From: Myxococcaceae bacterium
Lineage (GTDB): Bacteria > Myxococcota > UBA727 > JABDBI01
NCBI GenBank assembly: GCA_016000045.1
Contig: JAECQY010000001.1
Coordinates: forward strand, 169,194-233,193
Direction of reading: 5' to 3'
DNA: 64,000 nucleotides
Shown: in pieces, positions 1,196 to 57,636 of the stretch
How the letters are laid out: every line of letters starts with the position of its first letter
How positions within the stretch are numbered: the stretch's first letter is position 1
Made by a program: the position numbers and the translations under genes
The notes under the pieces: generated by a model
The model's input: the letters and a program-made list of their open reading frames with translations, nothing else
Told to the model about the DNA's origin: nothing
Databases searched by the model: none

Positions 1196-2656
1196 ATGAA
1201 ATTATTTCTTTGGGCAATAGTCGGAGTGAGTTGTTTGGGTAGGGCTGAGCCGAAGCCTAATTTTCCCTGTGATTTGCCAATGCTTCGATTCTCCCTTTCA
1301 TCTGTTTCGGAGCAAGCACTCCCAGAACCTGCGATTCCAGCGGTGGTGACCACGGTGACGCAAAATGGGGGTGCTGTATCTTCCGTTGTGAGCGCGATCA
1401 CGGCGGTTGGCCCGACTCAAGTTGCTCAGACGGCTCGCTCTGGATTAAGCCTGGATTTACTCGCTTGCGACGACGGCCTGCCCATGCAGGAAGGTCCGCT
1501 GGATTGGGCAGATAGCCCCACCCAGCTATCTTTGGGTGAGGGTTCGCTTCAGTACCATACTGGAGCTGTTCTGGGGAACTGGGTTTTGATGGTGGGAGCG
1601 GTGGGCGTATGGAGTGGGGTTGCTTACAAGCTAGGTCCTGAGGCGGCGCAGTTTCCCGGGAGTTTGATACTGCCGGCCCTGCTTTTGATAGTTCCCACCG
1701 TGACTTCTTCGTTCACGCTGGCGCGAGATGGGGACAAGTCTTTACAAACAGCCGGCTCGGTCTCGATCCTGGTATCGCTGGCCAGCATCGCTGCGGTTGG
1801 CGTCAAGGTATGCCCTCGGTTTTTTAAGGCGCGCTGGGAAGACTATGAGCATGAATGGGTCGATTTATCCAACGCGCAAAGAGGTTGGGTGGCACGGTAC
1901 GGCGAGTTGTTTGATACCTACGCCGCGGGCCGACAAGGCTATATCGTGGTTGAATTGTTGACTTCGGTAGGCGTGGGGACTCTTAAATCGTATCAGATTT
2001 TAGAACAAAACTGCCAGGAGTTGTTATGGGCAGGCATGGTTGTTTACGATGCTTATGCCATTTCGCAATTGGCTTTGCGTCCCAATCGCAATCGTCATGC
2101 TCAAATTTTTTACAGCGCCATCGCGACACTTCAAGCGACAGCCCTGACCTTGCAAGCCATTGTTTCCGTCTCCGCTTCCGAAGAAACACAAAGCAAAGTG
2201 AAAACCGTGACTCAATCGGTCGTGGTGGTGACAGAGTATATGATGATGATTAAGACCTTGTTTGACATGGGTTTGCGCGTCAAGAGTTGGTACGATCGAT
2301 ACTACCGGCTCCATTCGGTTTCACTTCCGAAGCAGTCTGCTGGGTTGTCCACCCCGCAGCAAAATACGCCGTTGGAGGAGATGCTATCGGTTGCTTTCGT
2401 ACCGCCTTCGCAAGATACGTTGGTGGGTGAAATGCTACCCCTTGCTTGTGTACCGCTTTCGCTGGACTCCTTGGAGCCTATTGTTCCAGAGGCTTTGTCT
2501 CCGAGCGCATCGGTGTCGGGCGAAGAAAATTTGAAAGCGACTTTAGTCAGCGACTTTGGTTTCTTGGTCGAACAGAGCTCTTCAGTGGCTCCTGTGCCCA
2601 AAAGTTTAAATGAGGTCATTGCCGAACTGATGCAACAGGAGAGTGATCTTGAATAA
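1196..2656 (+). CDS. Hypothetical membrane/secreted protein with N-terminal signal peptide and TM segments; Pro/Ser-rich C-terminus containing a ~45-bp internal tandem duplication
   Basis: Long ORF with signal-like start MKLFLWAIVGVSCLG. Hydrophobic segments are present. No family recognised. Its end overlaps the start of the downstream DUF1566 gene. Confidence 0.4.
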   Translation: MKLFLWAIVGVSCLGRAEPKPNFPCDLPMLRFSLSSVSEQALPEPAIPAVVTTVTQNGGAVSSVVSAITAVGPTQVAQTARSGLSLDLLACDDGLPMQEGPLDWADSPTQLSLGEGSLQYHTGAVLGNWVLMVGAVGVWSGVAYKLGPEAAQFPGSLILPALLLIVPTVTSSFTLARDGDKSLQTAGSVSILVSLASIAAVGVKVCPRFFKARWEDYEHEWVDLSNAQRGWVARYGELFDTYAAGRQGYIVVELLTSVGVGTLKSYQILEQNCQELLWAGMVVYDAYAISQLALRPNRNRHAQIFYSAIATLQATALTLQAIVSVSASEETQSKVKTVTQSVVVVTEYMMMIKTLFDMGLRVKSWYDRYYRLHSVSLPKQSAGLSTPQQNTPLEEMLSVAFVPPSQDTLVGEMLPLACVPLSLDSLEPIVPEALSPSASVSGEENLKATLVSDFGFLVEQSSSVAPVPKSLNEVIAELMQQESDLE

Positions 2657-4046
2657 ACAATGGCTGTTTTGTTTGTTGTGGTTGTCCCGTTTTGGGTTGG
2701 CTGGATATTTCAATGTGAGCGAAGTGCAGGACTCCATGGCGAATGAAGCGCTTTTTCAGCTGATTTCGAATCAGACCTGGACTGTGAACCAACAACAAGC
2801 ATTGATGTCGACGGGTCTTCGCGCTCTATTTCAATCGGTTTCGCCGCAAATCAAGTCGATGCCCGATTACACCGGGCAGTTTGTCGCAAATTGTTCGATT
2901 TTTCTGAATCTGCGCATCGAAGGAGTCGCTTGTGACGTGACGTCGGTCTCGACAGCGATGAAGCCGAGCGGTTATGATTTGAACTCGGCCCTTCGCTTGC
3001 CTCTGGAATACGCGACGCAGATCACACAAAGCGACATCATCTTGGTCAATCTTTACGCGGATTGGAGAGGTAAGACGACGGCTTACTCGGAGCAATATAC
3101 GCTTGGTCCATTTGCTCGAATGCGAACTTGTACGTCAACGCTCAGCGTGACGGATTCACCCGAAACCCCAAGCGGTTTGCTGAGTTCGAGTGAGAGCCTC
3201 GAAGAGTCTCAAACAGCCGCCCCGAGTGTGTCCAAACCCTTCAGTCTTAGTCCCAATGTTCTGGTTTCGGATTCTCACAGCATGAGTTCTACGAGTTCTG
3301 GCAGTAGTGCGTCGGTATCACTTTTGGTTTCTTCAAGCGCGAGTTCATCCGGCTGGTTCAGCGAGTCCAAAAGCCTGACCGAAGCCTTATCACTCAGCCA
3401 GAGTTCAAGTATTCAGGTTTCGGACTCTCGCAGCATGAGTTCTACGAGTTCTGGCAGCAGTGTATCAGCATCGCTTTGGGTTTCTTCAAGCGCGAGTTCG
3501 TCGGGTTGGTTCAGCGAGTCTCAAAGCTTGAGCGAAGCCTTATCACCGAGCCAAAGCTTCAGCAAAATCCTTTCGGGGACTTGTAGTCCGAGTGTGTGGG
3601 GCAGTTGCTTGGGCAATTCTACGGGTTTGGCTTATATTTGGTCTGGTAGTGCCATTTATTCAAACCCAACCAATCAAGCATCGCGTTATACGACCCCTGC
3701 GTCCGGGGTTGTAGGAGATAGTTTAACCGGTTTGCAGTGGGAGCAAGCCGCAAGTAGTAGCACGATGACTTGGAGTGCAGCAGGGACCTATTGTGCGGGC
3801 CGTACGACGGGTGGATTGAGCGGCTGGCGTTTGCCAAACGTGGATGAGCTTCAAACTTTAGTGGACTACACCACCTCCAGCCCAAGTATTAACTCGGCCG
3901 CATTTCCCAGTACACCGAGTAACTATTTTTGGACCTCGACCCTCTACCAACCGAACCCAACTTCCGCGTGGCTCGTCTATTTCTTTCGTGGCGACGTCGG
4001 CTTCAGTGATATGAGCAATAATGGCTTTGTCCGTTGCGCGCGTTGA
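2643..4046 (+). CDS. Secreted DUF1566 (Lcl C-terminal domain, C-type-lectin-like fold) protein with Ser-rich linker; candidate DGR variable protein 1
   Basis: C-terminal domain carries the WRLP..EL motif and the ...FWTST...VRCAR terminus typical of DUF1566. An N-terminal module is shared with the ORFs at 52139 and 54905. The gene lies 27 bp upstream of a DGR-type RT. Confidence 0.7.
   Translation: MILNKQWLFCLLWLSRFGLAGYFNVSEVQDSMANEALFQLISNQTWTVNQQQALMSTGLRALFQSVSPQIKSMPDYTGQFVANCSIFLNLRIEGVACDVTSVSTAMKPSGYDLNSALRLPLEYATQITQSDIILVNLYADWRGKTTAYSEQYTLGPFARMRTCTSTLSVTDSPETPSGLLSSSESLEESQTAAPSVSKPFSLSPNVLVSDSHSMSSTSSGSSASVSLLVSSSASSSGWFSESKSLTEALSLSQSSSIQVSDSRSMSSTSSGSSVSASLWVSSSASSSGWFSESQSLSEALSPSQSFSKILSGTCSPSVWGSCLGNSTGLAYIWSGSAIYSNPTNQASRYTTPASGVVGDSLTGLQWEQAASSSTMTWSAAGTYCAGRTTGGLSGWRLPNVDELQTLVDYTTSSPSINSAAFPSTPSNYFWTSTLYQPNPTSAWLVYFFRGDVGFSDMSNNGFVRCAR
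3264..3570 (+). repeat. Tandem duplication, 2 x 153 bp (51 aa), encoding a Ser-rich linker inside the DUF1566 gene
   Basis: Two near-identical units start with gtttcggaytctcrcagcatgagttctacgagttctggcag. In protein they read SMSSTSSGSS...SSSGWFSES. Confidence 0.75.
3921..4046 (+). other. Candidate DGR variable region VR-A (3' end of the DUF1566 gene)
   Basis: Compared with the paralogous segment 5951-6076, differences fall in codon positions 1-2 with the third base kept in 15 of 18 differing codons. Upstream of the block, differences between the two genes are ordinary synonymous drift. Confidence 0.55.
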
Positions 4047-4073
4047 GGATGGGAGAATGAACAGGATGGGACT

Positions 4074-5621
4074 GTGAAAAAAGGTTGGCCAACTTGGGAA
4101 AGCGTCGATCGAGCTGCGGCTGCTTGCGCCAAGCGCAAGCGAAGCAGACCCGATGCGATTGTTTTTCGGGCCCGCTACACAGAAGAGGTGCTGGACTTGT
4201 GCCAGCGCATTCGATCGGGAGAATACCGGCCCTCCTCGGGGACGGTTTTCGTGACCGATCGCCCAAAGACTCGTGAAATACACGCCTCTCATTATCGAGA
4301 TCGAGTGGTTCACCACCTGCTCCATGACCTGATTGAACCGCACTTTGAACAATCGTTTATTAAAGATTCGTACGCTTGTCGTAAAGGCAAAGGTTCTCAT
4401 GCTGCGGTAGAAGCCTTGCAAAAACACATGCAGCGAGCGACCTGTTATGGCAAAATACGTGCTTATGCCCTGCATCTCGATATTAGAAGTTTTTTCTTCT
4501 CCATTCATAAACCCACCTTGCTGGCTATTTTGGAGTCGAAGCAATGGTTTCGTGAGCAGGCGGAATTGCGGCATTTGACCACTTTGGTGATCAATCACCC
4601 CACTGCGCTGCATGCGAAGCCCTTGGGGCCACCAAGCTCGTTTGAACGAATTCCTCCGTTGAAGCGGCTTGGAGCTTTGGGGGAGGATCGAGGACTCCCC
4701 ATCGGCAATCTGACCAGCCAGTTGTTTGCGAATATCTACTTGGATGTCTTGGACCAGATGATCAAGCGTACTTTAGGGGCTCAATATTACGTCCGGTATT
4801 CAGATGATCTGGTCTTGTTGCACCGCGATGCGGATCAGCTCGCGAGCTGGAAGCAACAAATCATCGAGTTTTTGCAGCAAAGGCTAAAACTGGAGACGCA
4901 TGAGAAAGCGCCAATTCATCCGGTGAGCGAAGGTGTCGATTTTGTCGGGTATGTCATTCGTCCTGCTTACAAATTGTGCCGTGCACGCGTGATTCGGCAC
5001 GCTCACCAACGTATTACCGAGCTCGAAAAACCGCTACACCCTGAAGAACGAGAAGGTTATCAGTTCTGGCGAGTACGTCACAAGGACATCGAGGCTTTGC
5101 GTGCTTGTTGGGCAAGTTATGCGGGTCATTTGAAACATGCCAGTGCTTATCGAGTGGCTCAAAAGTTGCTCAAGCGGCACCCTATCTCTCAATTCTATTT
5201 GCGCTTTGAGATTGCGAAGCATGGAATTTCTGTGGCTCGGCGATTTGCTTTGCCTAAGATTGAGTCTTGTTGGAATCACCAAATCCATTCGTTGCATCAG
5301 AGCGTCTCGAAACCAGCGCTCCGATCGGCAGAGGGTTCTGCGGTGTTGTTGGTTCAAGTGGGTCGTTATGCCGAGTGTCCTTTGCAGAAGGATGCAGAGC
5401 GTTTGGAACTTCGTCGGGGCTTACCGTGGCGTCGCTTGCCTGAGATCATCGACCGAGCGGTTCAAAAGGGTCTGAAAGTGGCAGTGGCTGTTGAGTTTAA
5501 AAAATGCACAGGGCGTATTAGAGCTCGTTATTTGGCGTACTGGGTAGAACCCGTGGCGCGGCCGGTACTGCTTTCTGAAGGTTCTCCCAAGGCTGTGCAG
5601 TTGGAATTCGGGTTTTCATGA
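4074..5621 (+). CDS. Reverse transcriptase, diversity-generating retroelement (DGR) type
   Basis: RT motifs are present in order: RPKTREI, RDRVVHHLL, YACRKGKGSHAAV, LHLDIRSFF, LPIGNLTSQLFANIYLD (the IGxxxSQ substitution typical of DGR RTs), YVRYSDDLVLL and GVDFVGYVI. There is a ~200-aa C-terminal extension. The stop overlaps the next start (ATGA). Confidence 0.85.
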   Translation: MKKGWPTWESVDRAAAACAKRKRSRPDAIVFRARYTEEVLDLCQRIRSGEYRPSSGTVFVTDRPKTREIHASHYRDRVVHHLLHDLIEPHFEQSFIKDSYACRKGKGSHAAVEALQKHMQRATCYGKIRAYALHLDIRSFFFSIHKPTLLAILESKQWFREQAELRHLTTLVINHPTALHAKPLGPPSSFERIPPLKRLGALGEDRGLPIGNLTSQLFANIYLDVLDQMIKRTLGAQYYVRYSDDLVLLHRDADQLASWKQQIIEFLQQRLKLETHEKAPIHPVSEGVDFVGYVIRPAYKLCRARVIRHAHQRITELEKPLHPEEREGYQFWRVRHKDIEALRACWASYAGHLKHASAYRVAQKLLKRHPISQFYLRFEIAKHGISVARRFALPKIESCWNHQIHSLHQSVSKPALRSAEGSAVLLVQVGRYAECPLQKDAERLELRRGLPWRRLPEIIDRAVQKGLKVAVAVEFKKCTGRIRARYLAYWVEPVARPVLLSEGSPKAVQLEFGFS

Positions 5622-6076
5622 AATTTGCACTAGGTTGCCGAATCGCTTTACTCTTGAATATTGGCTTGCTCGCTTGGCCCTTGCTGGCCATTTGTCGTTA
5701 TACCAATGAAAATGGAGCAGCTCTGACCCCGAGTGATCAGACCGTTCGAGACAGCGTGACAGGGCTAGTCTGGCAAAGAACTCAAGCTGCTTCGACCATG
5801 TCTCAAACGTCTGCAGCCAGTTACTGCGCGTCTTTGAATCTCAATGGCTTTTCATTCCGTTTACCGACGGTTCGTGAATTGTCCAGCCTCGTGGACTTCA
5901 ATACCTCCAGTCCCAGCATTGACTCAACGGCTTTTCCGGGAACCTCTTCTAACTATTTTTGGACCTCGACTACTTACCAACCGATCCCAACTTACGCGTG
6001 GGTCGTCGATTTCTATGGTGGCTTCGTCGACTTCAATGCTATGGGCGGTGATAACTCTGTCCGTTGCGCGCGCTGA
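5618..6076 (+). CDS. Small secreted/lipoprotein-like protein consisting of a single DUF1566 domain; candidate DGR variable protein 2
   Basis: Signal peptide MKFALGCRIALLLNIGLLAWPLLAIC, then a DUF1566 domain (FRLPTVRELSSL...FWTST...VRCAR). The start is translationally coupled to the RT stop. Confidence 0.65.
   Translation: MKFALGCRIALLLNIGLLAWPLLAICRYTNENGAALTPSDQTVRDSVTGLVWQRTQAASTMSQTSAASYCASLNLNGFSFRLPTVRELSSLVDFNTSSPSIDSTAFPGTSSNYFWTSTTYQPIPTYAWVVDFYGGFVDFNAMGGDNSVRCAR
5951..6076 (+). other. Candidate DGR variable region VR-B
   Basis: See VR-A. It shares the invariant flanks aactatttttggacctcgac and gtccgttgcgcgcgYtgaggatggga. Confidence 0.5.
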
Positions 6077-6185
6077 GGATGGGATGTTGACCCTTTGCCT
6101 CTTCGACCTTTTAAAAAGGAAACGGAAGACAAGGGGGGCGAGACAAGCTCATGATGGACGATACTCTCTGCCAATCGCTTGTCGT

Positions 6186-7204: not shown

Positions 7205-9982
7205 CTAGCCGTTTTTTAAGCGATTGAGGCTGTCGGAGATCTGGCCTTCGCGTTCTGCTAAGAGCGACTGCTGTTTGCGATATTGCTCTAGAATCTCGAC
7301 TGGCGCTTTCGCAATAAAGCCTGGGCTTTGAAGCCGCTGTTCGAGACCTTTTCGCTCTTGAGTGATTTTCTCAAGCTCTTTTTGAAGCCGACGGGTTTCG
7401 GTCGCTAAATCGAGCAAGCCTTCCAGGGGAAGCACGATATCGTAGAGGCCATTCGTGTGAGTGGCCGCAAAGCGAGGAGTCGTGTAGTCTTGCCTTGTTC
7501 GGAAATCGACCGAATCCAAAAGAGCCAAGCGAAGCAGAGCTTCTTTTTGCTCGGCCAAGAAGTCCAAGTCGGCTGATTGCTCTGCTAGAATCACGGCTGA
7601 AAGACGCTTTTGAGCGGGCAAGTTCGATTCTTGTCTGGCGTTTCGAATCATGCCAATGACTTCTTGCAATTGAGCAAAGCTTTTTTCAGCCGCTGGGTCG
7701 AGATAAGCTCGATTGGCAACCGGAAATGAGGCAAAAGAACAAGTCCCTTCGGTGCCAGGCAAATGAGACCAAATTTCTTCGGAGACAAAGGGACAAAAAG
7801 GGTGCAAGAGCCGGACGCTGGTGGAGACCAGCTCAACCAAGATCGAACGAACGGCGGGAGAATCCATGCGAATCTTCGCAAGCTCGATGTACCAGTCGCA
7901 GACCTCGGTCCAGAAGAATTGATAAAGCGCATCGGAAGCGACGCTGAATTCGTAATGAGACAGGCTTTTGTCCACTTGCTCGATGACCTGTTGAAGGCGC
8001 GATAAAATAAAACGGTCTTCCAGCATGAAGAGCTCTTGGACTTGCGTGAGGGGCAGAATCGGCTCTGGGCCGATGCGCATGAGCACAAAGCGGGTGGCGT
8101 TCCAGACTTTATTCAAAAAGGCTCGATACCCAGAAACTCGAGGAATGGCGAGTTTGACATCTTGGCCTTGGCCCGACAGCATCGCCAGGCTAAGACGTAG
8201 ACCGTCTGCACCGGAGGCAGGAATTCCGTCTGGGTAATCTTTTTTAAGGCCTTCTAAAACGTGATTGAGCATTTTAGGAGGAACCGGGTAATTTTTGGTT
8301 TTGACCAACAAGTCTTCCAGAGAAATCCCTTCGATGACATCGATGGGGTCGATGGCATTGCCCAGAGATTTCGACATTTTTCGGCCGTGAGCGTCTCGTA
8401 CCATGGCATGCAAATAGATATCCCGAAACGGAACTTGCCCCATAAAATGCAAGCCAAACATCATCATGCGGGCCACCCAAAAGAAAAGAATGTCAAACCC
8501 CGTTTCCAGCACGCTGGTGGGGTAGAAGGTTTTCAGGTCGCTGGTTTCATGAGGCCAACCGAGTGTTGAGAACGGCCACAAAGCGGAAGAAAACCACGTA
8601 TCCAAGACGTCTTCTTCTTGGCGATAGCGCTCTGGGCCAAATTTTTTGACGAGATCCTCACGGCTCGCGACGGAAATTTCACGCATTTCAGCATCGCTTA
8701 AGGAGTTCAAATCTCGATCCCCAAGCTTTTGCAGGTCGTAATAGACCGGAATGGGGTGTCCCCACCAAAGTTGACGCGAAATGCACCAATCTTGGATGTT
8801 CAAGAGAAAATGGTCGTAGGTTTTTTTCCAGCTTGCAGGCAAAATCCGAGTTTCGCCATTCTCAACCGCTTGATAGGCTTTTTGAGCCATCGAGTCCATG
8901 CGAATAAAGTATTGTTTGCTGAGCATGGGCTCAATATCTTCCCCAGAACGTGAGGATACCGAGACTTTGTGTTCGATGCTTTGAGCCCCTCGAACAAGAC
9001 CCAACGCTTCTAAATCTTTTTTAATTTGGCTGCGCGCTTCTTGCCGAGTGAGGCCTTGGTAGGAACCTCCTTGATGGTTCACCTTGCCGTCTCGTGTGAA
9101 AATCGATATTTCCGCTAAACCATGGCGTTTCCCTGCGGCGTAGTCGTTTGGATCGTGCGCAGGCGTCATTTTGACCGCTCCGGTTCCAAAATCCACGTCA
9201 ACCAGAGTGTCCGCGATGATCGGAATCACGCGGGATTCGAAAAACGGATGCCTGACCTGACGGCCTTGCAAATGTTTGTATCGAGGGTCGTCTGGATGAA
9301 CCGCAATGGCGGTGTCGCCCAGCATGGTTTCGGGTCGGGTGGTTGCGACAACGATTTCTTCTTCGAGGCCGATGATTGGATAGGCAAAATGGAACAGCTC
9401 TCCTGTGCGGGCCACGTGCTCGACTTCTTCGTCGCTGAGCGCTGTCTGAGAACCCGGATCCCAGTTCACCAGGCGCTCTCCTCGGTAGATGAGGCCCTCG
9501 TCCCAAAGTCGCACAAAGGCTTCGTTAACGGCTTCGCAGAGTTCGGGATCCAGCGTGAATTTATGCCGGTTCCAATCCGCGGAAGCCCCCAACTGCTTCA
9601 TTTGGTGAACAATGGTTTTGCCGTTTTGGTCAACCCATTGCCAAATTTTTTTCACAAATTCAGGACGACCGATTTCGTGGCGGGTTTTGCCTTCTTGTTT
9701 GAAGACTTCGCGCTCAACGACCGTTTGCGTCGCGATGCCCGCATGATCGGTTCCTGGGAGCCAAAGGGTCTTTCGCCCTTTCATGCGATGATAACGTACC
9801 AAAATATCTTGCAGTGTCACGAAAAGCGCATGCCCATTGTGAAGAACGCCTGTCACGTTGGGAGGCGGCATCATGACGGTGTAAGGCACACCGGTTTTTT
9901 CATCGGGTGAAAAGAAACCGGGCTTGTCAAAGAGTGCGCGCCATTTTAGCTCAAGGGTCTTTGCGTCGTATTTCGGATCCAT
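7205..9982 (-). CDS. valS: Valyl-tRNA synthetase
   Basis: HIGH-like PPPNVTGVLHNGHAL and KMSKS motifs are present. Length is 925 aa with a C-terminal coiled coil. Confidence 0.95.
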   Translation of the reverse strand: MDPKYDAKTLELKWRALFDKPGFFSPDEKTGVPYTVMMPPPNVTGVLHNGHALFVTLQDILVRYHRMKGRKTLWLPGTDHAGIATQTVVEREVFKQEGKTRHEIGRPEFVKKIWQWVDQNGKTIVHQMKQLGASADWNRHKFTLDPELCEAVNEAFVRLWDEGLIYRGERLVNWDPGSQTALSDEEVEHVARTGELFHFAYPIIGLEEEIVVATTRPETMLGDTAIAVHPDDPRYKHLQGRQVRHPFFESRVIPIIADTLVDVDFGTGAVKMTPAHDPNDYAAGKRHGLAEISIFTRDGKVNHQGGSYQGLTRQEARSQIKKDLEALGLVRGAQSIEHKVSVSSRSGEDIEPMLSKQYFIRMDSMAQKAYQAVENGETRILPASWKKTYDHFLLNIQDWCISRQLWWGHPIPVYYDLQKLGDRDLNSLSDAEMREISVASREDLVKKFGPERYRQEEDVLDTWFSSALWPFSTLGWPHETSDLKTFYPTSVLETGFDILFFWVARMMMFGLHFMGQVPFRDIYLHAMVRDAHGRKMSKSLGNAIDPIDVIEGISLEDLLVKTKNYPVPPKMLNHVLEGLKKDYPDGIPASGADGLRLSLAMLSGQGQDVKLAIPRVSGYRAFLNKVWNATRFVLMRIGPEPILPLTQVQELFMLEDRFILSRLQQVIEQVDKSLSHYEFSVASDALYQFFWTEVCDWYIELAKIRMDSPAVRSILVELVSTSVRLLHPFCPFVSEEIWSHLPGTEGTCSFASFPVANRAYLDPAAEKSFAQLQEVIGMIRNARQESNLPAQKRLSAVILAEQSADLDFLAEQKEALLRLALLDSVDFRTRQDYTTPRFAATHTNGLYDIVLPLEGLLDLATETRRLQKELEKITQERKGLEQRLQSPGFIAKAPVEILEQYRKQQSLLAEREGQISDSLNRLKNG

Positions 9983-11885: not shown

Positions 11886-12088
11886 CTTGCTACGTTGGCT
11901 GCGCGCCTCTTCGAAATCGTAGATGTCAGGTAACTGCATAAAGAATAGAAGTGTAGCACACGAGGCTGTAGCTCAAATTATCCAAACGTAGGAGATAGCA
12001 AGCTTGAATGAGTGCCGAAGGCGATAGCTGCTTTCGGCCTGAACTAGAAAGCGATTTCATTCTTTGGGTGGATCATGTTTTGATTTTC

Positions 12089-12180
12089 TTAGCAATAAGC
12101 TCCAAAGTTTACGAAAGTAATTTAGAAGCTCATTTATTACAGTGCGTCTAAACGCCATAATTTATTTTGGCGGGCATCGC
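12089..12180. repeat. Intergenic repeat family A, copy 1 (~92 nt)
   Basis: About 85% identical to 57477-57570: gcaataagctccaaagtttacgRaagtaatt...gcgtctaaacgccataatttattttgRcggg. Confidence 0.6.
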
Positions 12181-52138: not shown

Positions 52139-54502
52139 TTGCGAATGGCGATTAAGAAAAATCTAAAAACCCAAGCACGGTGCTTTAGGCAAGCAAAGCT
52201 GCTGGTATTCTTAATTTGGGGACAAACCGCTGTTGCTGCCTGGCTTAATCAAAGCCAGGTAACGAATGCCGTGGCGAATCAGGCACTAACCCAGCTTGTT
52301 TCGAACCAGACATTGCCTGCCGCCCAGCAAAAACAATGGTTCTCGACCGGATTGAAGGCCTTGTTTGCCGAGCTAACTCCGGCGATTCAAGCGATGCCAG
52401 ATTATACGGGCCAGTTTGTAGCCAATTGTTCCATTTTCATGAACACTCACATCGAGCAGGTTTTGTGCGAGATCAACTCCACGACTGCTTTGGTGAGACC
52501 CGAGAGTTGCGGACAGAGTTCCTTACTTCCTTTGGAATATGAGCATCAAATTACCGAAAGCGCGATTTTGCTGGTGAGTTTTTACGCTGATTGGACGCGT
52601 AAGACGTCGTTATCCTCCGAATCTTATGCCGTTCGTTTGTTCGATCGGATGCCAACGTGCACCGCGTCTGCGAGCGTTTCAGAGACAGGGCCAATACTCA
52701 GCCAAACCTTGAGCCCTACTGAGTCTACCTCTTTGAATTTTACGATAAGCCCAAGTGCTCCTGTGGTTTGGAACCCCGAGTGGGCAAATTGGCAGATAAC
52801 GACCGGTGTCTATCAAGACAACGCCAATCAAACGGGCCGCTACCTTGAATCGGTTCCAGGAGTTATCACGGATCAAATGACGGGTTTGCAGTGGCAAAAA
52901 GTAGGGAGTGCGCCTGCGGGTAATTGGACGGCTGCGCAGGCCTATTGCGCTAATTTGTTTGAGTCTGGGTTTGGGGATTGGCGTTTGCCCGCGCACGTGG
53001 AACTTCAGACTTTGGTGGATTATACGATGGATTGCGCTGGTCCCAGCGTGGATCTGAATTTTTTCCCAGGCGCTCAAACCAGCAGTTACTATTGGTCCTC
53101 GGACGCTTTACAGGGTTACCCTGGCAGTGCTTGGTGGGTGAGCTACGGTAGTAGTGGTGCCTATTACGCAGGCCTCGTTTGCAGCCAGGGTTATGGTGCT
53201 TGTTCTTCAGTGCCTGCGAGCGGCTTTGCCCGTTGTGTGCGACCCTCGTTGGCAGATCGAGAGATAGATCGTTACACCTTTAATAGCACGCAGGTTCTGG
53301 ACACCGTAACGGGCTTGATTTGGCAGCGAACGGTTTCTGGAACTTATAACTGGGGTGCAGCGCAGGCTTATTGTGCGGGTTTGAATCTGGACGGTTTGAT
53401 CTGGCGTCTTCCGAATGTTAAAGAGTTATCGACGCTTCTGGATGTTCGCATAGCATCTCCGGGTCCGACGATCAATACGACGGCTTTTCCGAGTACACCT
53501 CAGGCTGGGTTTTGGACATCAACGCCTTGTTCGTGTGCGTCTTCATCCGTCGCGTGGCTGGTCGATTTCATCTATGGTTCTGTGTCCTACACTGGCATGG
53601 GCACTTTTGACTATGTTCGTTGTGTGCGCTCTCCTCAGGTTTACAATCCCGAGTGGGCGAATTGGCAAGTGACAACGGGCGTCTATCGAGACAACGCTAA
53701 TCAAACGGGCCGCTACCTTGAATCGGTTCCAGGAGTTATCACGGATCAAATGACGGGTTTGCAGTGGCAGAAAGTAGTGAGTGCGCCTGCTGGCAATTGG
53801 ACGGCTGCGCAAGCCTATTGTGCTAATTTGTTTGAGTCTGGGTTTGGAGACTGGCGCTTGCCCACGCACGTAGAACTTCAGACTTTGGTGGATTATACGA
53901 TCAGTTGCACTGGTCCCAGCGTGGATCAGGATTTTTTCCCAGGTACTCAAACCAGCAGTTACTATTGGTCCTCCGACGCTTTGCAGGGTTACCCTGGAAG
54001 TGCTTGGTGGGTGAGTTACGGCACCGGTGCCTATTACGCGGGCCTTGTTTGCAGCCAGGGCTATGGCGTCGCTTGTCCTTCGGTGCCCGCGAGCGGTTTT
54101 GCCCGTTGTGTGCGACCTTCGTCGGCAGAACGAGAGGAGGATCGTTATGCCTTCAACAGCACCCAGGTGCTGGACACCGTGACGGGCTTAATTTGGCAAC
54201 GGATGGTTTCCGGAACTTACAGCTGGAGTGCAGCGCAGGCTTATTGTACGGGTTTAAATCTGGACGGTTTGAGCTGGCGCCTTCCGAATGTCAAAGAGCT
54301 ATCGACGCTTCTGGATGTTCGCATGGCATCTCCGGGTCCGACGATCAATACGACGGCTTTTCCGAGTACACCGCAGGGCGGCTTTTGGACATCAACGCTT
54401 TATACGTGTTCCTCATCCAACGCCTGGGCGGTCTTTTTCGATAATGGCTACGTCGCCTTCAATGATATGAGCTCTTCTTACTGTGTCCGTTGCGCGCGTT
54501 GA
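52139..54502 (+). CDS. Large secreted protein with shared N-terminal module and four DUF1566 domains in two ~874-bp tandem units; candidate multi-VR DGR target
   Basis: Four WRLP..EL motifs. Units 52763-53636 and 53637-54502 are near-identical except at the tips of domains 2 and 4 (FWTST...VRCVR/VRCAR). Confidence 0.65.
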   Translation: MRMAIKKNLKTQARCFRQAKLLVFLIWGQTAVAAWLNQSQVTNAVANQALTQLVSNQTLPAAQQKQWFSTGLKALFAELTPAIQAMPDYTGQFVANCSIFMNTHIEQVLCEINSTTALVRPESCGQSSLLPLEYEHQITESAILLVSFYADWTRKTSLSSESYAVRLFDRMPTCTASASVSETGPILSQTLSPTESTSLNFTISPSAPVVWNPEWANWQITTGVYQDNANQTGRYLESVPGVITDQMTGLQWQKVGSAPAGNWTAAQAYCANLFESGFGDWRLPAHVELQTLVDYTMDCAGPSVDLNFFPGAQTSSYYWSSDALQGYPGSAWWVSYGSSGAYYAGLVCSQGYGACSSVPASGFARCVRPSLADREIDRYTFNSTQVLDTVTGLIWQRTVSGTYNWGAAQAYCAGLNLDGLIWRLPNVKELSTLLDVRIASPGPTINTTAFPSTPQAGFWTSTPCSCASSSVAWLVDFIYGSVSYTGMGTFDYVRCVRSPQVYNPEWANWQVTTGVYRDNANQTGRYLESVPGVITDQMTGLQWQKVVSAPAGNWTAAQAYCANLFESGFGDWRLPTHVELQTLVDYTISCTGPSVDQDFFPGTQTSSYYWSSDALQGYPGSAWWVSYGTGAYYAGLVCSQGYGVACPSVPASGFARCVRPSSAEREEDRYAFNSTQVLDTVTGLIWQRMVSGTYSWSAAQAYCTGLNLDGLSWRLPNVKELSTLLDVRMASPGPTINTTAFPSTPQGGFWTSTLYTCSSSNAWAVFFDNGYVAFNDMSSSYCVRCAR

Positions 54503-54540
54503 GGATGGGATGTTGATCCTTTGACTTTTGACCTTTTAAT

Positions 54541-54607
54541 AAAGAAAATGGAAGGCAGTAGGGCCCGAAATAGGCACTGGCTCGTTAGCTTCTGGGAAAG
54601 ATACGTT
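54541..54607. repeat. Intergenic repeat family B, copy 1 (~67 nt), downstream of a DUF1566 gene
   Basis: aaagaaaaYggaaggcagYagggYYcgaaataggcWctg...agcttSTgggaaagatacgtt. Second copy at 57570-57636; partial match at 6106-6125. Confidence 0.55.
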
Positions 54608-54904: not shown

Positions 54905-57445
54905 ATGAATCGGTATTTGTGCTCCTGGCTGTTATTGCTGTCTTTACCGGTTCAAGCGGGTTTTGTGCTTCGAGAAGGCTTCTCCGAAGTTCTGAGTCAA
55001 CAGTTTTCAAATCTGACGCAGCTTAAGAATCAAACGAGCTCTTTATCCAAAGAGCTTGTGACACAAAATGCCATGAGGGGATTATGGTCTCTCATTGGGC
55101 CTCATCTTCAAGCCTTACCGGGTTGTTGTAAGAAGCCTTTTAGCTCAAATTGCTCTGTGTTTTTCGATGCCGAAATTGATGAGGTTGTGTGTGATGCGCA
55201 ATTTGAAGAGGTTCAAGCAATTTCGACATCTTGCGAAGCCGAGCAACGGTTTCCAGTGGGTTATTTGGCGCAGTTACACAAGAGCAATATTCTCCAGACG
55301 CGCATTGTCGTGGGTCTGGCGCCTGTGCAACATCCGCAGGTGATGTATTGGTTGTATGATAAATTGCCACCGACGCTTTCACAATCTGTGACACAATCAA
55401 ATTCCATGAGTGGCCGCAACACTCAAACCGGCACAGATTCCGCAAGCCCGATGAATAGCACCACGGATTCTGTTGGCCCAACGAGTAGTTTTACAGAGAG
55501 TTTATTGTCGAGCAGGAGCGTGTCGTTTAGCTCAACTGCCACTGAATCATTGACTCCAAGCCATTCGGTTGCAACAGAATCGGCTAATCTGTCGCATTCT
55601 TTGAGTGGGAGCACTGTTCCGTGCACGAGCGAGAGCTTGTCTCATTCTCAAACTTTGAGTTCTACCCAGTACCCATCGTTCAGTTCAAGCCTGAGTCCCA
55701 GTGCTCCCGTGGTTTGGAACCCTGAGTGGGCGGATTGGCAAGTGACAACGGGTGTTTATCGAGATAATGCCAATCAAACGGGCCGCTATTTTGAATCCGT
55801 TCCGGGGGTTATCACGGATCAGATGACGGGTTTGCAGTGGCAAAAGGTAGGGAGTGCATCTGCGGGCAATTGGATTGCTGCCCAGGCCTATTGCACAGAT
55901 TTGTTTGAGTCTGGGTTTGGAGACTGGCGTTTGCCCACGCACGTGGAACTTCAGACCTTGGTGGATTATACGATCAGTTGCGCTGGGCCCAGTGTGGATC
56001 TGGGTTTTTTCCCAGGCACGCAAACCAGCAGTTACTATTGGTCCTCCGACGCTTTGCAGGGTTACCCTGGGAGTGCTTGGTGGGTAAGTTACGGCAGCGG
56101 TGCTTATTACGCGGGTCTCGTTTGCAGTCAGGGCTATAGCGGTTGTTCTTCAGCGCCTGCGAGCGGCTTTGCCCGTTGTGTGCGATCCTCATCGGCGGTT
56201 CGAGAGGTGAATCGTTATGCCTTTAATAGCACCCAGGTACTGGACACGGTGACGGGCTTGATTTGGCAACGAACGGTTTCCGGAACTTACAACTGGGGTG
56301 CGGCGCAAGCTTATTGTGCGGGTTTGAATCTGGATGGTTTGAGCTGGCGCCTTCCGAATGTCAAAGAATTATCGACGCTTCTGGATGTTCGTGTGGCATA
56401 CCCGGGTCCAACGATCAATACGACGGTTTTTCCGAGTACACCGCAGAGCGGCTTTTGGACCTCAACGCCTTATTCGTGTGTGTCTTCATCTAACGCGTGG
56501 TTGGTTGGTTTTGACTGTGGTTACGTCATCTTCAATGGTTTGAGCCCTGCTGGCTATGTTCGTTGTGTGCGCTCTCCTCAGGTTTACAATCCCGAGTGGG
56601 CAAATTGGCAAGTGACAACCGGTGTCTATCAAGACAGCGCCAATCAAACGGGCCGCTACCTTGAATCGGTTCCAGGAGTTATCACGGATCAAATGACGGG
56701 TTTGCAGTGGCAAAAAGTAGAAAGTGCGCCTGCAGGCAATTGGACGGCTGCGCAGGCTTATTGTGCTAATTTGTTTGAGTCTGGGTTTGGAGACTGGCGT
56801 TTGCCCACGCACGTGGAACTTCAGACCTTGGCGGATTATACGATCAGTTGCGCTGGGCCGAGTGTGGATCCGGACTTTTTCCCAGGCACTCAAACCAGCA
56901 GTTACTATTGGTCCTCAGACGCTTTGCAGGGTTACCCTGGCAGTGCCTGGTGGGTGAGTTATGGGAGCGGTGCCTATTACGCAGGCCTCGTTTGCAGCCA
57001 GGGTTATGGTGGTTGTACTTCAGTGCCTGCGAGCGGCTTTACGCGTTGTGTGCGACCCTCGTCGGCGGTTCGAGAGGTAGATCGTTATACCTTTAATAGC
57101 ACACAAGTTCTGGACACCGTAACGGGCTTGATCTGGCAACGAACGGTTTCAGGGAATTACAACTGGGGTGCAGCGCAAGCTTATTGTGCGGGTTTAAACC
57201 TCGACGGTTTGAGCTGGCGTCTTCCCAATGTCAAAGAATTGTCAACGCTTCTGGATGTTCACGTGGCATACCCGGGTCCGACTATCAACACGACGGTTTT
57301 TCCAGGCACGCCTCAGGCCTGGTTTTGGACATCAACGCCTTATTCGTGCGCGTCCCCGTCCGGTGCGTGGGGCGTGGATTTCGGTAATGGCGGCGTCTTC
57401 ACGGTTAGCATCAGCAATACTTACTATGTTCGGTGCGTGCGTTGA
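54905..57445 (+). CDS. Large secreted protein with Ser/Thr-rich linker and four DUF1566 domains in two ~867-bp tandem units; candidate multi-VR DGR target
   Basis: Signal peptide MNRYLCSWLLLLSLPVQAG. Units about 55718-56584 and 56585-57445. Hypervariable tips on domains 2 and 4. Confidence 0.65.
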   Translation: MNRYLCSWLLLLSLPVQAGFVLREGFSEVLSQQFSNLTQLKNQTSSLSKELVTQNAMRGLWSLIGPHLQALPGCCKKPFSSNCSVFFDAEIDEVVCDAQFEEVQAISTSCEAEQRFPVGYLAQLHKSNILQTRIVVGLAPVQHPQVMYWLYDKLPPTLSQSVTQSNSMSGRNTQTGTDSASPMNSTTDSVGPTSSFTESLLSSRSVSFSSTATESLTPSHSVATESANLSHSLSGSTVPCTSESLSHSQTLSSTQYPSFSSSLSPSAPVVWNPEWADWQVTTGVYRDNANQTGRYFESVPGVITDQMTGLQWQKVGSASAGNWIAAQAYCTDLFESGFGDWRLPTHVELQTLVDYTISCAGPSVDLGFFPGTQTSSYYWSSDALQGYPGSAWWVSYGSGAYYAGLVCSQGYSGCSSAPASGFARCVRSSSAVREVNRYAFNSTQVLDTVTGLIWQRTVSGTYNWGAAQAYCAGLNLDGLSWRLPNVKELSTLLDVRVAYPGPTINTTVFPSTPQSGFWTSTPYSCVSSSNAWLVGFDCGYVIFNGLSPAGYVRCVRSPQVYNPEWANWQVTTGVYQDSANQTGRYLESVPGVITDQMTGLQWQKVESAPAGNWTAAQAYCANLFESGFGDWRLPTHVELQTLADYTISCAGPSVDPDFFPGTQTSSYYWSSDALQGYPGSAWWVSYGSGAYYAGLVCSQGYGGCTSVPASGFTRCVRPSSAVREVDRYTFNSTQVLDTVTGLIWQRTVSGNYNWGAAQAYCAGLNLDGLSWRLPNVKELSTLLDVHVAYPGPTINTTVFPGTPQAWFWTSTPYSCASPSGAWGVDFGNGGVFTVSISNTYYVRCVR

Positions 57446-57476
57446 AGACGGGATTTTTACTTTTTATTTTTATAAA

Positions 57477-57570
57477 ATTGGCAATAAGCTCCAAAGTTTA
57501 CGGAAGTAATTGAGAACCCAATTCATGACAGCGCGTCTAAACGCCATAATTTATTTTGACGGGAACCGAA
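57477..57570. repeat. Intergenic repeat family A, copy 2
   Basis: See 12089-12180. Confidence 0.6.
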
Positions 57571-57636
57571 AAGAAAACGGAAGGCAGCAGGGTTCGAAAT
57601 AGGCTCTGAGGCGGCAGCTTGTGGGAAAGATACGTT
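57570..57636. repeat. Intergenic repeat family B, copy 2
   Basis: See 54541-54607. Confidence 0.55.

Follow-up and report, generated by a model that had tools for sequence, protein, structure and literature searches.

A GC-rich block at the ends of three DUF1566 genes in a Myxococcaceae genome: the probable boundary element of a diversity-generating retroelement that appears to have lost its template

Why should three genes for DUF1566 (Lcl_C) proteins in one bacterial genome end in the same stretch of DNA, stop codon included? This question is raised by a 64,000-nt segment of Myxococcaceae contig JAECQY010000001.1, which was analyzed over its whole length and is referred to here as the window. 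A preliminary description made from the letters alone had proposed that the repeated motif, GTCCGTTGCGCGCGYTGAGGATGGGA, resembles the initiation of mutagenic homing (IMH) element of a diversity-generating retroelement (DGR), the 3' block where mutagenic homing starts. A pattern search of the window that tolerated up to three mismatches returned three matches, all exact and all on the + strand, at 4029-4054, 6059-6084, and 54485-54510 (copies 1, 2, and 3, with the start positions originally reported), compared with none in 100 dinucleotide shuffles of the window. Each copy reads GTC CGT TGC GCG CGY TGA (V R C A R stop) plus 8 nt and terminates an open reading frame (ORF; 2643-4046, 5618-6076, and 52139-54502, respectively), and all three ORFs match Pfam PF07603, in agreement with their first annotation as DUF1566 genes. 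We consider it likely that the motif forms the invariant block at the 3' end of the variable repeats (VRs) and template repeat (TR) of a DGR, where the IMH lies, that copy 1 arose through a deletion between VR1 and the TR, and that the cassette is probably inactive.

The target genes themselves carry the signature of diversification. Target gene 1 (2643-4046, + strand) encodes 467 amino acids with a Ser-rich tandem linker and a C-terminal Lcl_C/DUF1566 domain (PF07603, E=1.4e-31), target gene 2 (5618-6076, +) encodes 152 amino acids with a signal peptide and an Lcl_C domain, and target gene 3 (52139-54502, +), which is not adjacent to the others, encodes 787 amino acids with four Lcl_C domains. 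Together with a paralogue at 54905-57445, these genes match PF07603 with E values of 1e-30 to 1e-107, which places their variable domains in the C-type-lectin-type (DUF1566/Lcl_C) class. In a codon alignment of the three gene ends anchored at the stop, the last 27 codons varied at positions 1, 2, and 3 in 9, 12, and 3 codons, respectively, with perfectly invariant codons interspersed among the variable ones; the corresponding counts for the preceding 23 codons were 13, 8, and 16, mostly position 3. Hypervariability falls almost entirely at codon positions 1 and 2 within a short C-terminal stretch of each target, and the codon pattern places the VR bodies at about 3939-4028 (within the last ~36 codons of target gene 1), about 5969-6058, and, in target gene 3, about 54419-54484, where the pattern is confined to the last domain. 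As judged from these codons, the variability reflects adenine mutagenesis of the AAY codons in one AAY-rich TR. All three copies were diversified, given that a similar share of the inferred adenines is retained in each.

The motif begins directly after the last hypervariable codon in the three gene ends. Its first part, GTCCGTTGCGCGCG, abuts the last variable codon (-7) and has G or C at 11 of 14 positions, so that the 3' end of each VR shows a GC-rich start right after the last mutable position, as is typical of an IMH. Conservation was said to continue past the stop codon further than protein constraint would explain, and it extends even further than was recognized: copies 2 and 3 are 86% identical over the 50 nt past the stop, compared with 57% over the 150 coding nucleotides that precede the diversified part. 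The extension TGTTGAYCCTTTG is limited to copies 2 and 3, as had been noted, and copy 1 departs from copy 2 directly past GGGA (43% identity).

Between copies 1 and 2 sits a gene that was overlooked in the preliminary description, namely, that of a DGR-type reverse transcriptase (RT; 4074-5621, +; RVT_1, E=8e-15). The predicted protein of 515 amino acids contains IGNLTSQ (residues 210 to 216), YSDD, and a C-terminal extension of ~150 residues. IGNLTSQ conforms in domain 4 to the (I/V/L)GxxxSQ motif that characterizes DGR RTs (Schillinger et al. 2012, PMC3521204), and the window RT matches every one of the 87 columns that are invariant in an alignment of 18 clade sequences. Homologues with 30 to 62% identity adjoin TR/VR pairs in 53 fetched loci, in which a script applied to the RT loci and their flanks called a pair when at least 75% of the mismatches between two repeats fell at adenines of one copy. 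Given that these homologues lie beside adenine-biased TR/VR pairs, the window RT is a member of a large DGR clade with the usual layout Lcl_C target-avd-TR-RT. A second target lies downstream of the RT in six related loci, and the overlap of the target gene 2 start with the RT stop (ATGA) has an equal in the fetched loci L003, L010, and L092. Many clade members (RT homologues P0032-P0119) have a precomputed Pfam MutS_I (PF01624) match in the ~150-residue C-terminal extension, which corresponds to residues ~370 to 515 of the window RT; only three RTs with an extension of this type have been reported (Wu et al. 2018, PMC5758913). Some clade RT ORFs run on into the TR and hence also score as Lcl_C.

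The relatives also show where the block lies with respect to TR-VR homology. IMH and its TR counterpart, IMH*, are recognized bioinformatically as an imperfect repeat between TR and VR that comes after the A-to-N region and in most cases has a GC-rich start (Wu et al. 2018, PMC5758913). A comparison with TR 3' ends had been suggested for the window motif and was made in the relatives. In printed alignments of TR and VR ends from more than 50 related DGRs, which were used instead of an automatic stop-versus-homology-end estimate that was unreliable (frame choice, conservative end rule), homology crosses the conserved C-terminal codons and the stop and ends a few nucleotides later. Given that TR-VR homology in the relatives runs through an equivalent block, the window block sits at the position expected of an IMH, and a role in homing is predicted from this placement. 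The block of L010 and L092 is nearly equal to that of the window (GTTCGTTG(T/C)G(T/C)(G/T)CGTTGAGGA[T/C]GGG, also given as GTTCGTTGTGTGCGTTGAGGA[T/C]GGG). At GGA[T/C]GGG, seven DGRs (L002, L003, L004, L006, L010, L091, and L092; ten VRs) have T in the TR and C in the VR, and beyond GGG the TR of these DGRs continues into the RT start (…GATGGGAGAATG…) while the VR continues into T-rich direct repeats. TR and VR of the relatives have the block in common and differ by T/C and in their flanks; the window copies differ only past GGGA and all carry the TR-type T within GGATGGGA (positions 4050, 6080, and 54506).

The TR lies upstream of the RT in all 52 relatives scored and ends between -30 and +120 nt from the RT start in 45 of them, with a median gap of 46 nt. 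L010 is intact and consists of target 1 with its VR (GGACGGG plus TTTTGAC repeats), avd, a leader, the TR (GGATGGG), the RT, and a target 2 that overlaps the RT stop, with 596 nt between the end of VR1 and the end of the TR. The leader between avd and TR is conserved (L002, about 1490-1560; L003, about 490-545; L006, about 9720-9775) and is composed of GATCCCGTGCGSTGG, a short hairpin, an A-run, and then GCGC. In a clade with almost no TR-RT spacer, it may form a structured segment within the DGR RNA; a search of the TR regions of four relatives against Rfam gave no match. The DGRs of L002 (3331-5304) and L091 (91-899 and 8370-9087), the closest relatives with 62% RT identity, are embedded in a phage-tail-like module (Dit_like, Pam3_gp18, E217_GP41, and Sheath_initiator), and for this reason their Lcl_C targets may be tail-fibre-like proteins.

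Against this background, copy 1 is not equivalent to copies 2 and 3, given both its position in the TR slot and its flank. The end of copy 1 is 20 nt from the RT start, compared with 21 nt for the TR of L002, and only 27 nt separate target gene 1 from the RT gene. The junction GAATGAACAGGATGGGACT at 4055-4073 (+), which includes the probable RT ribosome-binding site, resembles the TR-to-RT junction of L002; from 4047 (GGATGGGA onward), 37 of 47 nt are identical to it without gaps, compared with 15 to 17 of 47 for copies 2 and 3. The GATGGGAGAATGA flank likewise follows the AAC-rich TRs of L090 and L091 (61 to 62% RT identity). Even so, the last variable codons of copy 1, GGC TTT, are VR-type. 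Judged by sequence, copy 1 is a diversified VR body that lies in frame with a full-length target gene and carries a TR-type 3' flank in the TR slot; at 4029-4054, the GC-rich block, stop codon, and GGATGGGA form an IMH*-type end joined to this body. The IMH-like reading thus holds for the VR2 and VR3 ends at 6059-6084 and 54485-54510, where the DGR RT, the block position, and the TR/VR ends of relatives all argue for it, but the three copies cannot be treated as equivalent target IMHs because copy 1 occupies the TR slot.

No cognate TR was found in the window by blastn (word size 7), by an ungapped scan of both strands for "match or A," or by a search with an inferred AAY-type TR (…TGGAACGTCAATTTCAATAATGGCAACGTCAACTTCAATAATATGAACAATAATAACTATGTCCGTTGC…); only the VR copies and paralogous domains were recovered. 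Nor did the window contain avd, either beside the RT or elsewhere (tblastn with Avd proteins of three relatives; best E=1.0), or the conserved TR-leader motif, and an Rfam scan of the window returned one tRNA and nothing else. Copies 1 to 3 formed no TR/VR pair with differences at TR adenines. Copies 1 and 2 were each tried as the TR for the other copies and rejected, given that the mismatches were not adenine biased (7/23 in either direction) and the three copies are equally diversified. The TR of L003 was also rejected as the template of copies 1 to 3 (35 to 39 mismatches, only about 20 at adenines and 15 to 17 non-adenine, with four differences inside the block).

We propose the following history. 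In the intact relatives, the avd-TR-RT module makes adenine-mutagenized cDNA from TR RNA, this cDNA replaces the VR at the C terminus of the Lcl_C/DUF1566 (C-type-lectin-like) proteins, and diversification halts at the GC-rich block over the last codons and stop, a few nucleotides before TR-VR homology ends. The ancestor of the window locus would have had the order target1(VR1)-avd-leader-TR-RT-target2(VR2) that L010 has kept. Recombination between VR1 and the TR, or slippage, within a block of ~27 identical nt would then have removed about 600 nt that comprised avd, the leader, and the TR body and left an intact RT gene between relic VRs. Such a crossover would have fallen after the last variable codons, given that GGC TTT of copy 1 is still VR-type. 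As the simplest history, this deletion is the most likely one. The cassette is probably no longer diversifying, given that it has neither an adenine-rich TR nor Avd. The chimera does not appear to have served as a template since the deletion, because copies 2 and 3 would then match copy 1 at non-adenine positions, which they do not.

The one adenine-biased TR/VR pair that involves the window belongs to a separate VR. A degenerate fourth copy of the motif, GTTCGGTGCGTGCGTTGAAGACGGGA, at 57428-57453 terminates the paralogue at 54905-57445 (846 amino acids), and the remote VR it closes (57351-57453, +) lies in the last Lcl_C domain of that protein. The TR of L003 is identical to window positions 57351-57456 at 85 of 106 positions, and 18 of the 21 mismatches fall at TR adenines; the site also has the C typical of VRs (GAAGACGGGA), with T-rich repeats downstream of it. 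L003 is a complete avd-TR-RT-target DGR on another contig from the same sample as the window, and its RT accession (MBH2006910) belongs to one series with those of the window proteins (MBH2005893-5940), so it is probably part of the same genome. The genome thus probably holds two sister DGR systems with distinct boundary blocks and one surface-protein family, which is what would be expected if the block confers template-target specificity. The tandem paralogues at 52139-54502 and 54905-57445 each have four Lcl_C domains and an internal repeat of ~870 nt; the boundary block is found only on the last domain of each, and the internal domains end in ...CVRS/P and stay in frame. An intergenic direct repeat of ~100 nt (83% identical) occurs at two unrelated places, 12078-12179 and 57467-57568, the latter just downstream of the 846-residue Lcl_C gene, and a 67-nt repeat (84% identical) lies downstream of both four-domain paralogues at 54541-54607 and 57570-57636, beyond their 8-nt repeats, with a weaker echo at about 6113-6135.

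How firmly the deletion can be held depends on what else could account for this arrangement. The cassette could be split but complete, with its TR, with or without avd, located elsewhere in the genome and used in trans, so that all three copies would be active target IMHs. The RT ORF is intact, DGR parts are known to act in trans on remote targets (Wu et al. 2018, PMC5758913), and within this locus copy 3 and the RT are already some 48 kb apart, the second DGR probably reaches a remote VR in the window, and the flanks of copies 2 and 3 appear constrained. We nevertheless regard this explanation as improbable, given that the TR is immediately upstream of the RT in every relative with a detectable TR (52/52), that copy 1 fills the TR slot, that its flank is orthologous to TR-RT junctions and differs from VR flanks, and that the TR of L003, the sole other TR seen, is not cognate. 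Slightly less probable again is an assembly artefact, in which the true order would be target1-avd-TR-RT, with about 600 nt skipped when the assembly passed from VR1 into the TR by way of their common block. VR/TR repeats and heterogeneity of VR populations often break or confuse metagenome assemblies, and the L003 contig ends exactly inside its own VR. However, an independently built Logan contig is 100% identical to the NCBI metagenome-assembled genome (MAG) over 5.9 kb across the copy 1-RT junction, and this base-for-base agreement of two differently made assemblies, albeit from the same sample, disfavors a misassembly. The common identical stretch is also only ~27 nt long, given the VR-type GGC TTT of copy 1, and is shorter than the k-mers usual in assembly.

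A third explanation dispenses with retrohoming altogether and attributes the motif to ordinary conservation among paralogues, through protein constraint on VRCAR together with recent duplication or gene conversion. The first 18 nt of the motif are indeed coding, and the Lcl_C domains in the window all finish with a similar V/Y-R-C-V/A-R. Against this, the internal Lcl_C domains encode the same peptide from different DNA and lack the rest of the motif, identity between copies 2 and 3 is higher in the noncoding flank than in the coding sequence (86% versus 57%), the block sets in exactly where position-1/2 hypervariability stops, and a DGR RT is adjacent, with equivalent blocks common to TR and VR in its relatives. 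We find it hard to credit this explanation at all. No copy of the motif after an unrelated gene, which had been named as grounds for rejecting the IMH-like reading, was found in the window. We therefore favor the VR1-TR deletion, even though several points weigh against it. Our model leaves unaccounted for the TR-type T that is found at GGAYGGG in copies 2 and 3. Our search covered the window, and a cognate TR could lie elsewhere in the contig of roughly 249 kb or in the rest of the genome. An intact RT ORF with all clade-invariant residues fits a recent deletion but would fit continued function as well, the ~27-nt block is short for the proposed crossover, and both assemblies probably derive from the same reads. 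In addition, about a quarter of known DGRs have no avd (74% have it), so its loss alone is no proof of inactivity (Wu et al. 2018, PMC5758913).

Downstream of the VRs, the sequence takes on a regular form. The VR-type flank of copy 2 (6085-6116, +) consists of four 8-nt units, TGTTGACC CTTTGCCT CTTCGACC TTTTAAAA, and is 84% identical to the flank of copy 3 (period 8 versus shuffles, p=0.045); the latter (54511-54541, +) reads TGTTGATC CTTTGACT TTTGACC TTTTAATA (period score, p=0.02). About three units in each flank are of the YTTTGAC type, and they are of the same repeat class as those found after VRs in the relatives. In the 50 nt after the end of homology at 63 VR ends from the fetched loci, the best period was 8 in 43 flanks, compared with 13 of 63 matched TR flanks (Wilcoxon p=2e-9), and 44 of the 63 VR flanks exceeded 95% of their dinucleotide shuffles. 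VR flanks also differed from 215 other gene ends of the same loci (Mann-Whitney p=3e-18), and the words TTTGA (42 versus 6), ATTTG (33 versus 3), and TTGAC (25 versus 1) were enriched in VR over TR flanks. Repeats of the TTTGAC/ATTTGA/ATTTAA type with 8-nt units begin at the end of TR-VR homology in L002, L004, L006, L010, L015, L017, L019, L027, L035, L041, L043, L054, L055, L061, L067, L069, L074, L077, and L084, among others. Most VRs of the clade are followed by them, whereas TRs and other genes are not. Where a locus has two VRs, conservation is as a rule higher in the flank than in the coding sequence before it. A promoter role alone does not account for the repeats, given that they are also found behind VRs without a downstream avd promoter, as in the second VR of L010 and in copies 2 and 3 of the window.

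We tentatively suggest, at somewhat less than even confidence, that the (Y/A)TTTGA(C/T) repeats of 8-nt period could be a clade-wide cis element of DGR target sites that marks recipient versus donor and aids cDNA access, any such part in homing being predicted from position and conservation. One may speculate that they act as an easily melted or protein-bound region that supplements or replaces the GC-rich cruciform of the Bordetella phage BPP-1. The BPP-1 stem-loop has been proposed to prolong target single-strandedness on the lagging-strand template (bioRxiv 10.1101/2025.08.18.670894); by analogy, and again speculatively, an A/T-rich repeat beside a GC-rich block might have a similar effect or bind protein. 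The + strand of the window (1-64000) shows positive GC skew in each 8-kb bin, and all four VR genes, which lie on that strand, would accordingly be co-directional with the inferred replication, in weak agreement with the same study. A literature search found no description of such repeats after VRs.

A hairpin, by contrast, is not what the flanks have in common. The preliminary description placed a small hairpin after the motif at 6108-6120; ccttttaaaaagg does exist, at 6107-6119 (one base off), but it has a 5-bp A/T-rich stem, occurs after one copy only, and lies in a region that folds no more stably than shuffles (z 0.14). Folding of the flanks, which had been suggested as a check, revealed no conserved or significant hairpin after the motif (DNA folds no better than shuffles, z -1.8 to +1.9), and it was the 8-nt-period direct repeat that proved to be conserved in the clade. 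No terminator-like site was found after the motif copies. A GC-rich inverted repeat 4 to 34 bp downstream, as expected of an IMH, is absent here, the 5-bp A/T stem of copy 2 being the only one; such GC-rich inverted repeats are present in only 34% of DGRs (PMC5758913). Some relatives have a GC-rich GNRA-type hairpin after the repeats (e.g., CCGCGAAGCGG), and the window has none.

A motif scan of a representative genome contig collection gave two matches, both in Tsukamurella and judged to be due to chance, and a scan of a viral contig collection gave none. The target proteins are identical between two NCBI MAG versions and are uninformative on VR variants. Away from the cassette, a 148-nt inverted repeat (601-748 and 941-1088; 96% complementary, 192-nt spacer) that resembles a miniature inverted-repeat transposable element or large hairpin element is placed between a PD-(D/E)XK ORF (58-504) and an ORF at 1061-2656.

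Taken alone, the motif adds little, being a DGR boundary element of the textbook type within a target class that is already known; DUF1566-class targets, several or remote targets, IMH/IMH* blocks, and C-terminal MutS_I-like RT extensions have all been described before (PMC5758913, PMC3240598). More can be drawn from its surroundings. The locus looks like a natural example of the death of a DGR, in which its own TR and VR, being direct repeats, would recombine, avd and the TR would be lost, and the last target variants would be frozen. The 8-nt repeats show strong regularity over about 60 VR ends and are apparently undescribed; given that the canonical hairpin is confined to about a third of DGRs, they are candidates for the missing recipient-site determinant of a large clade and could help in re-targeting DGRs for directed evolution.

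The window can also be compared with known systems. In BPP-1, the IMH consists of (GC)14 and a 21-bp element at the VR 3' end (Guo et al. 2011, PMC3240598). Like it, the window block is GC-rich (11 of the first 14 nt), lies at the VR 3' end, sits at the 3' boundary of adenine-directed variation, and spans the end of the target ORF; the block is common to the TR in relatives, and TR- and VR-type copies diverge just downstream. Unlike BPP-1, the window sequence is unrelated, the IMH and IMH* of its relatives differ by a single T/C and the flank rather than at 5 of 21 positions, and the window has T-rich direct repeats of 8-nt period instead of a GC-rich hairpin or cruciform. The DUF1566 class is DGR target category "d"/CLec2 (Wu et al. 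2018, PMC5758913), and the Legionella pneumophila DGR (LdtA) resembles the window in its DUF1566/Lcl_C targets with C-terminal VRs and secretion signals, its chromosomal location, and its more than one target. That DGR differs in having avd, an MSL gene, a TR, and a functional hairpin, whereas the window has neither avd nor a TR, and relatives of the window RT have a MutS_I-like segment fused to the RT C terminus. DGRs of the Treponema denticola type (Wu et al. 2018, PMC5758913) likewise have several VRs per RT/TR, some of them tens of kilobases away, as copy 3 is by about 48 kb and as the VR at 57351-57453 has its DGR on another contig; they differ in that their accessory gene is HRDC and in that the local TR is missing from the window. 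The intact relatives are L010 (Ga0105046_10033848), L002/L091 (Myxococcaceae MAGs), and L003. Unlike the window, these still have three parts between target 1 and the RT, namely, avd, the conserved leader, and a TR rich in AAC, and C in their VRs stands opposite T in their TRs. They are of the same RT clade (40 to 62% identity), target family, and block class (GTYCGYTG.G.GCGYTGARGAYGGG) as the window, with the same TR-to-RT junction, the same overlap of RT stop and target start, and the same TTTGAC-type repeats after their VRs.

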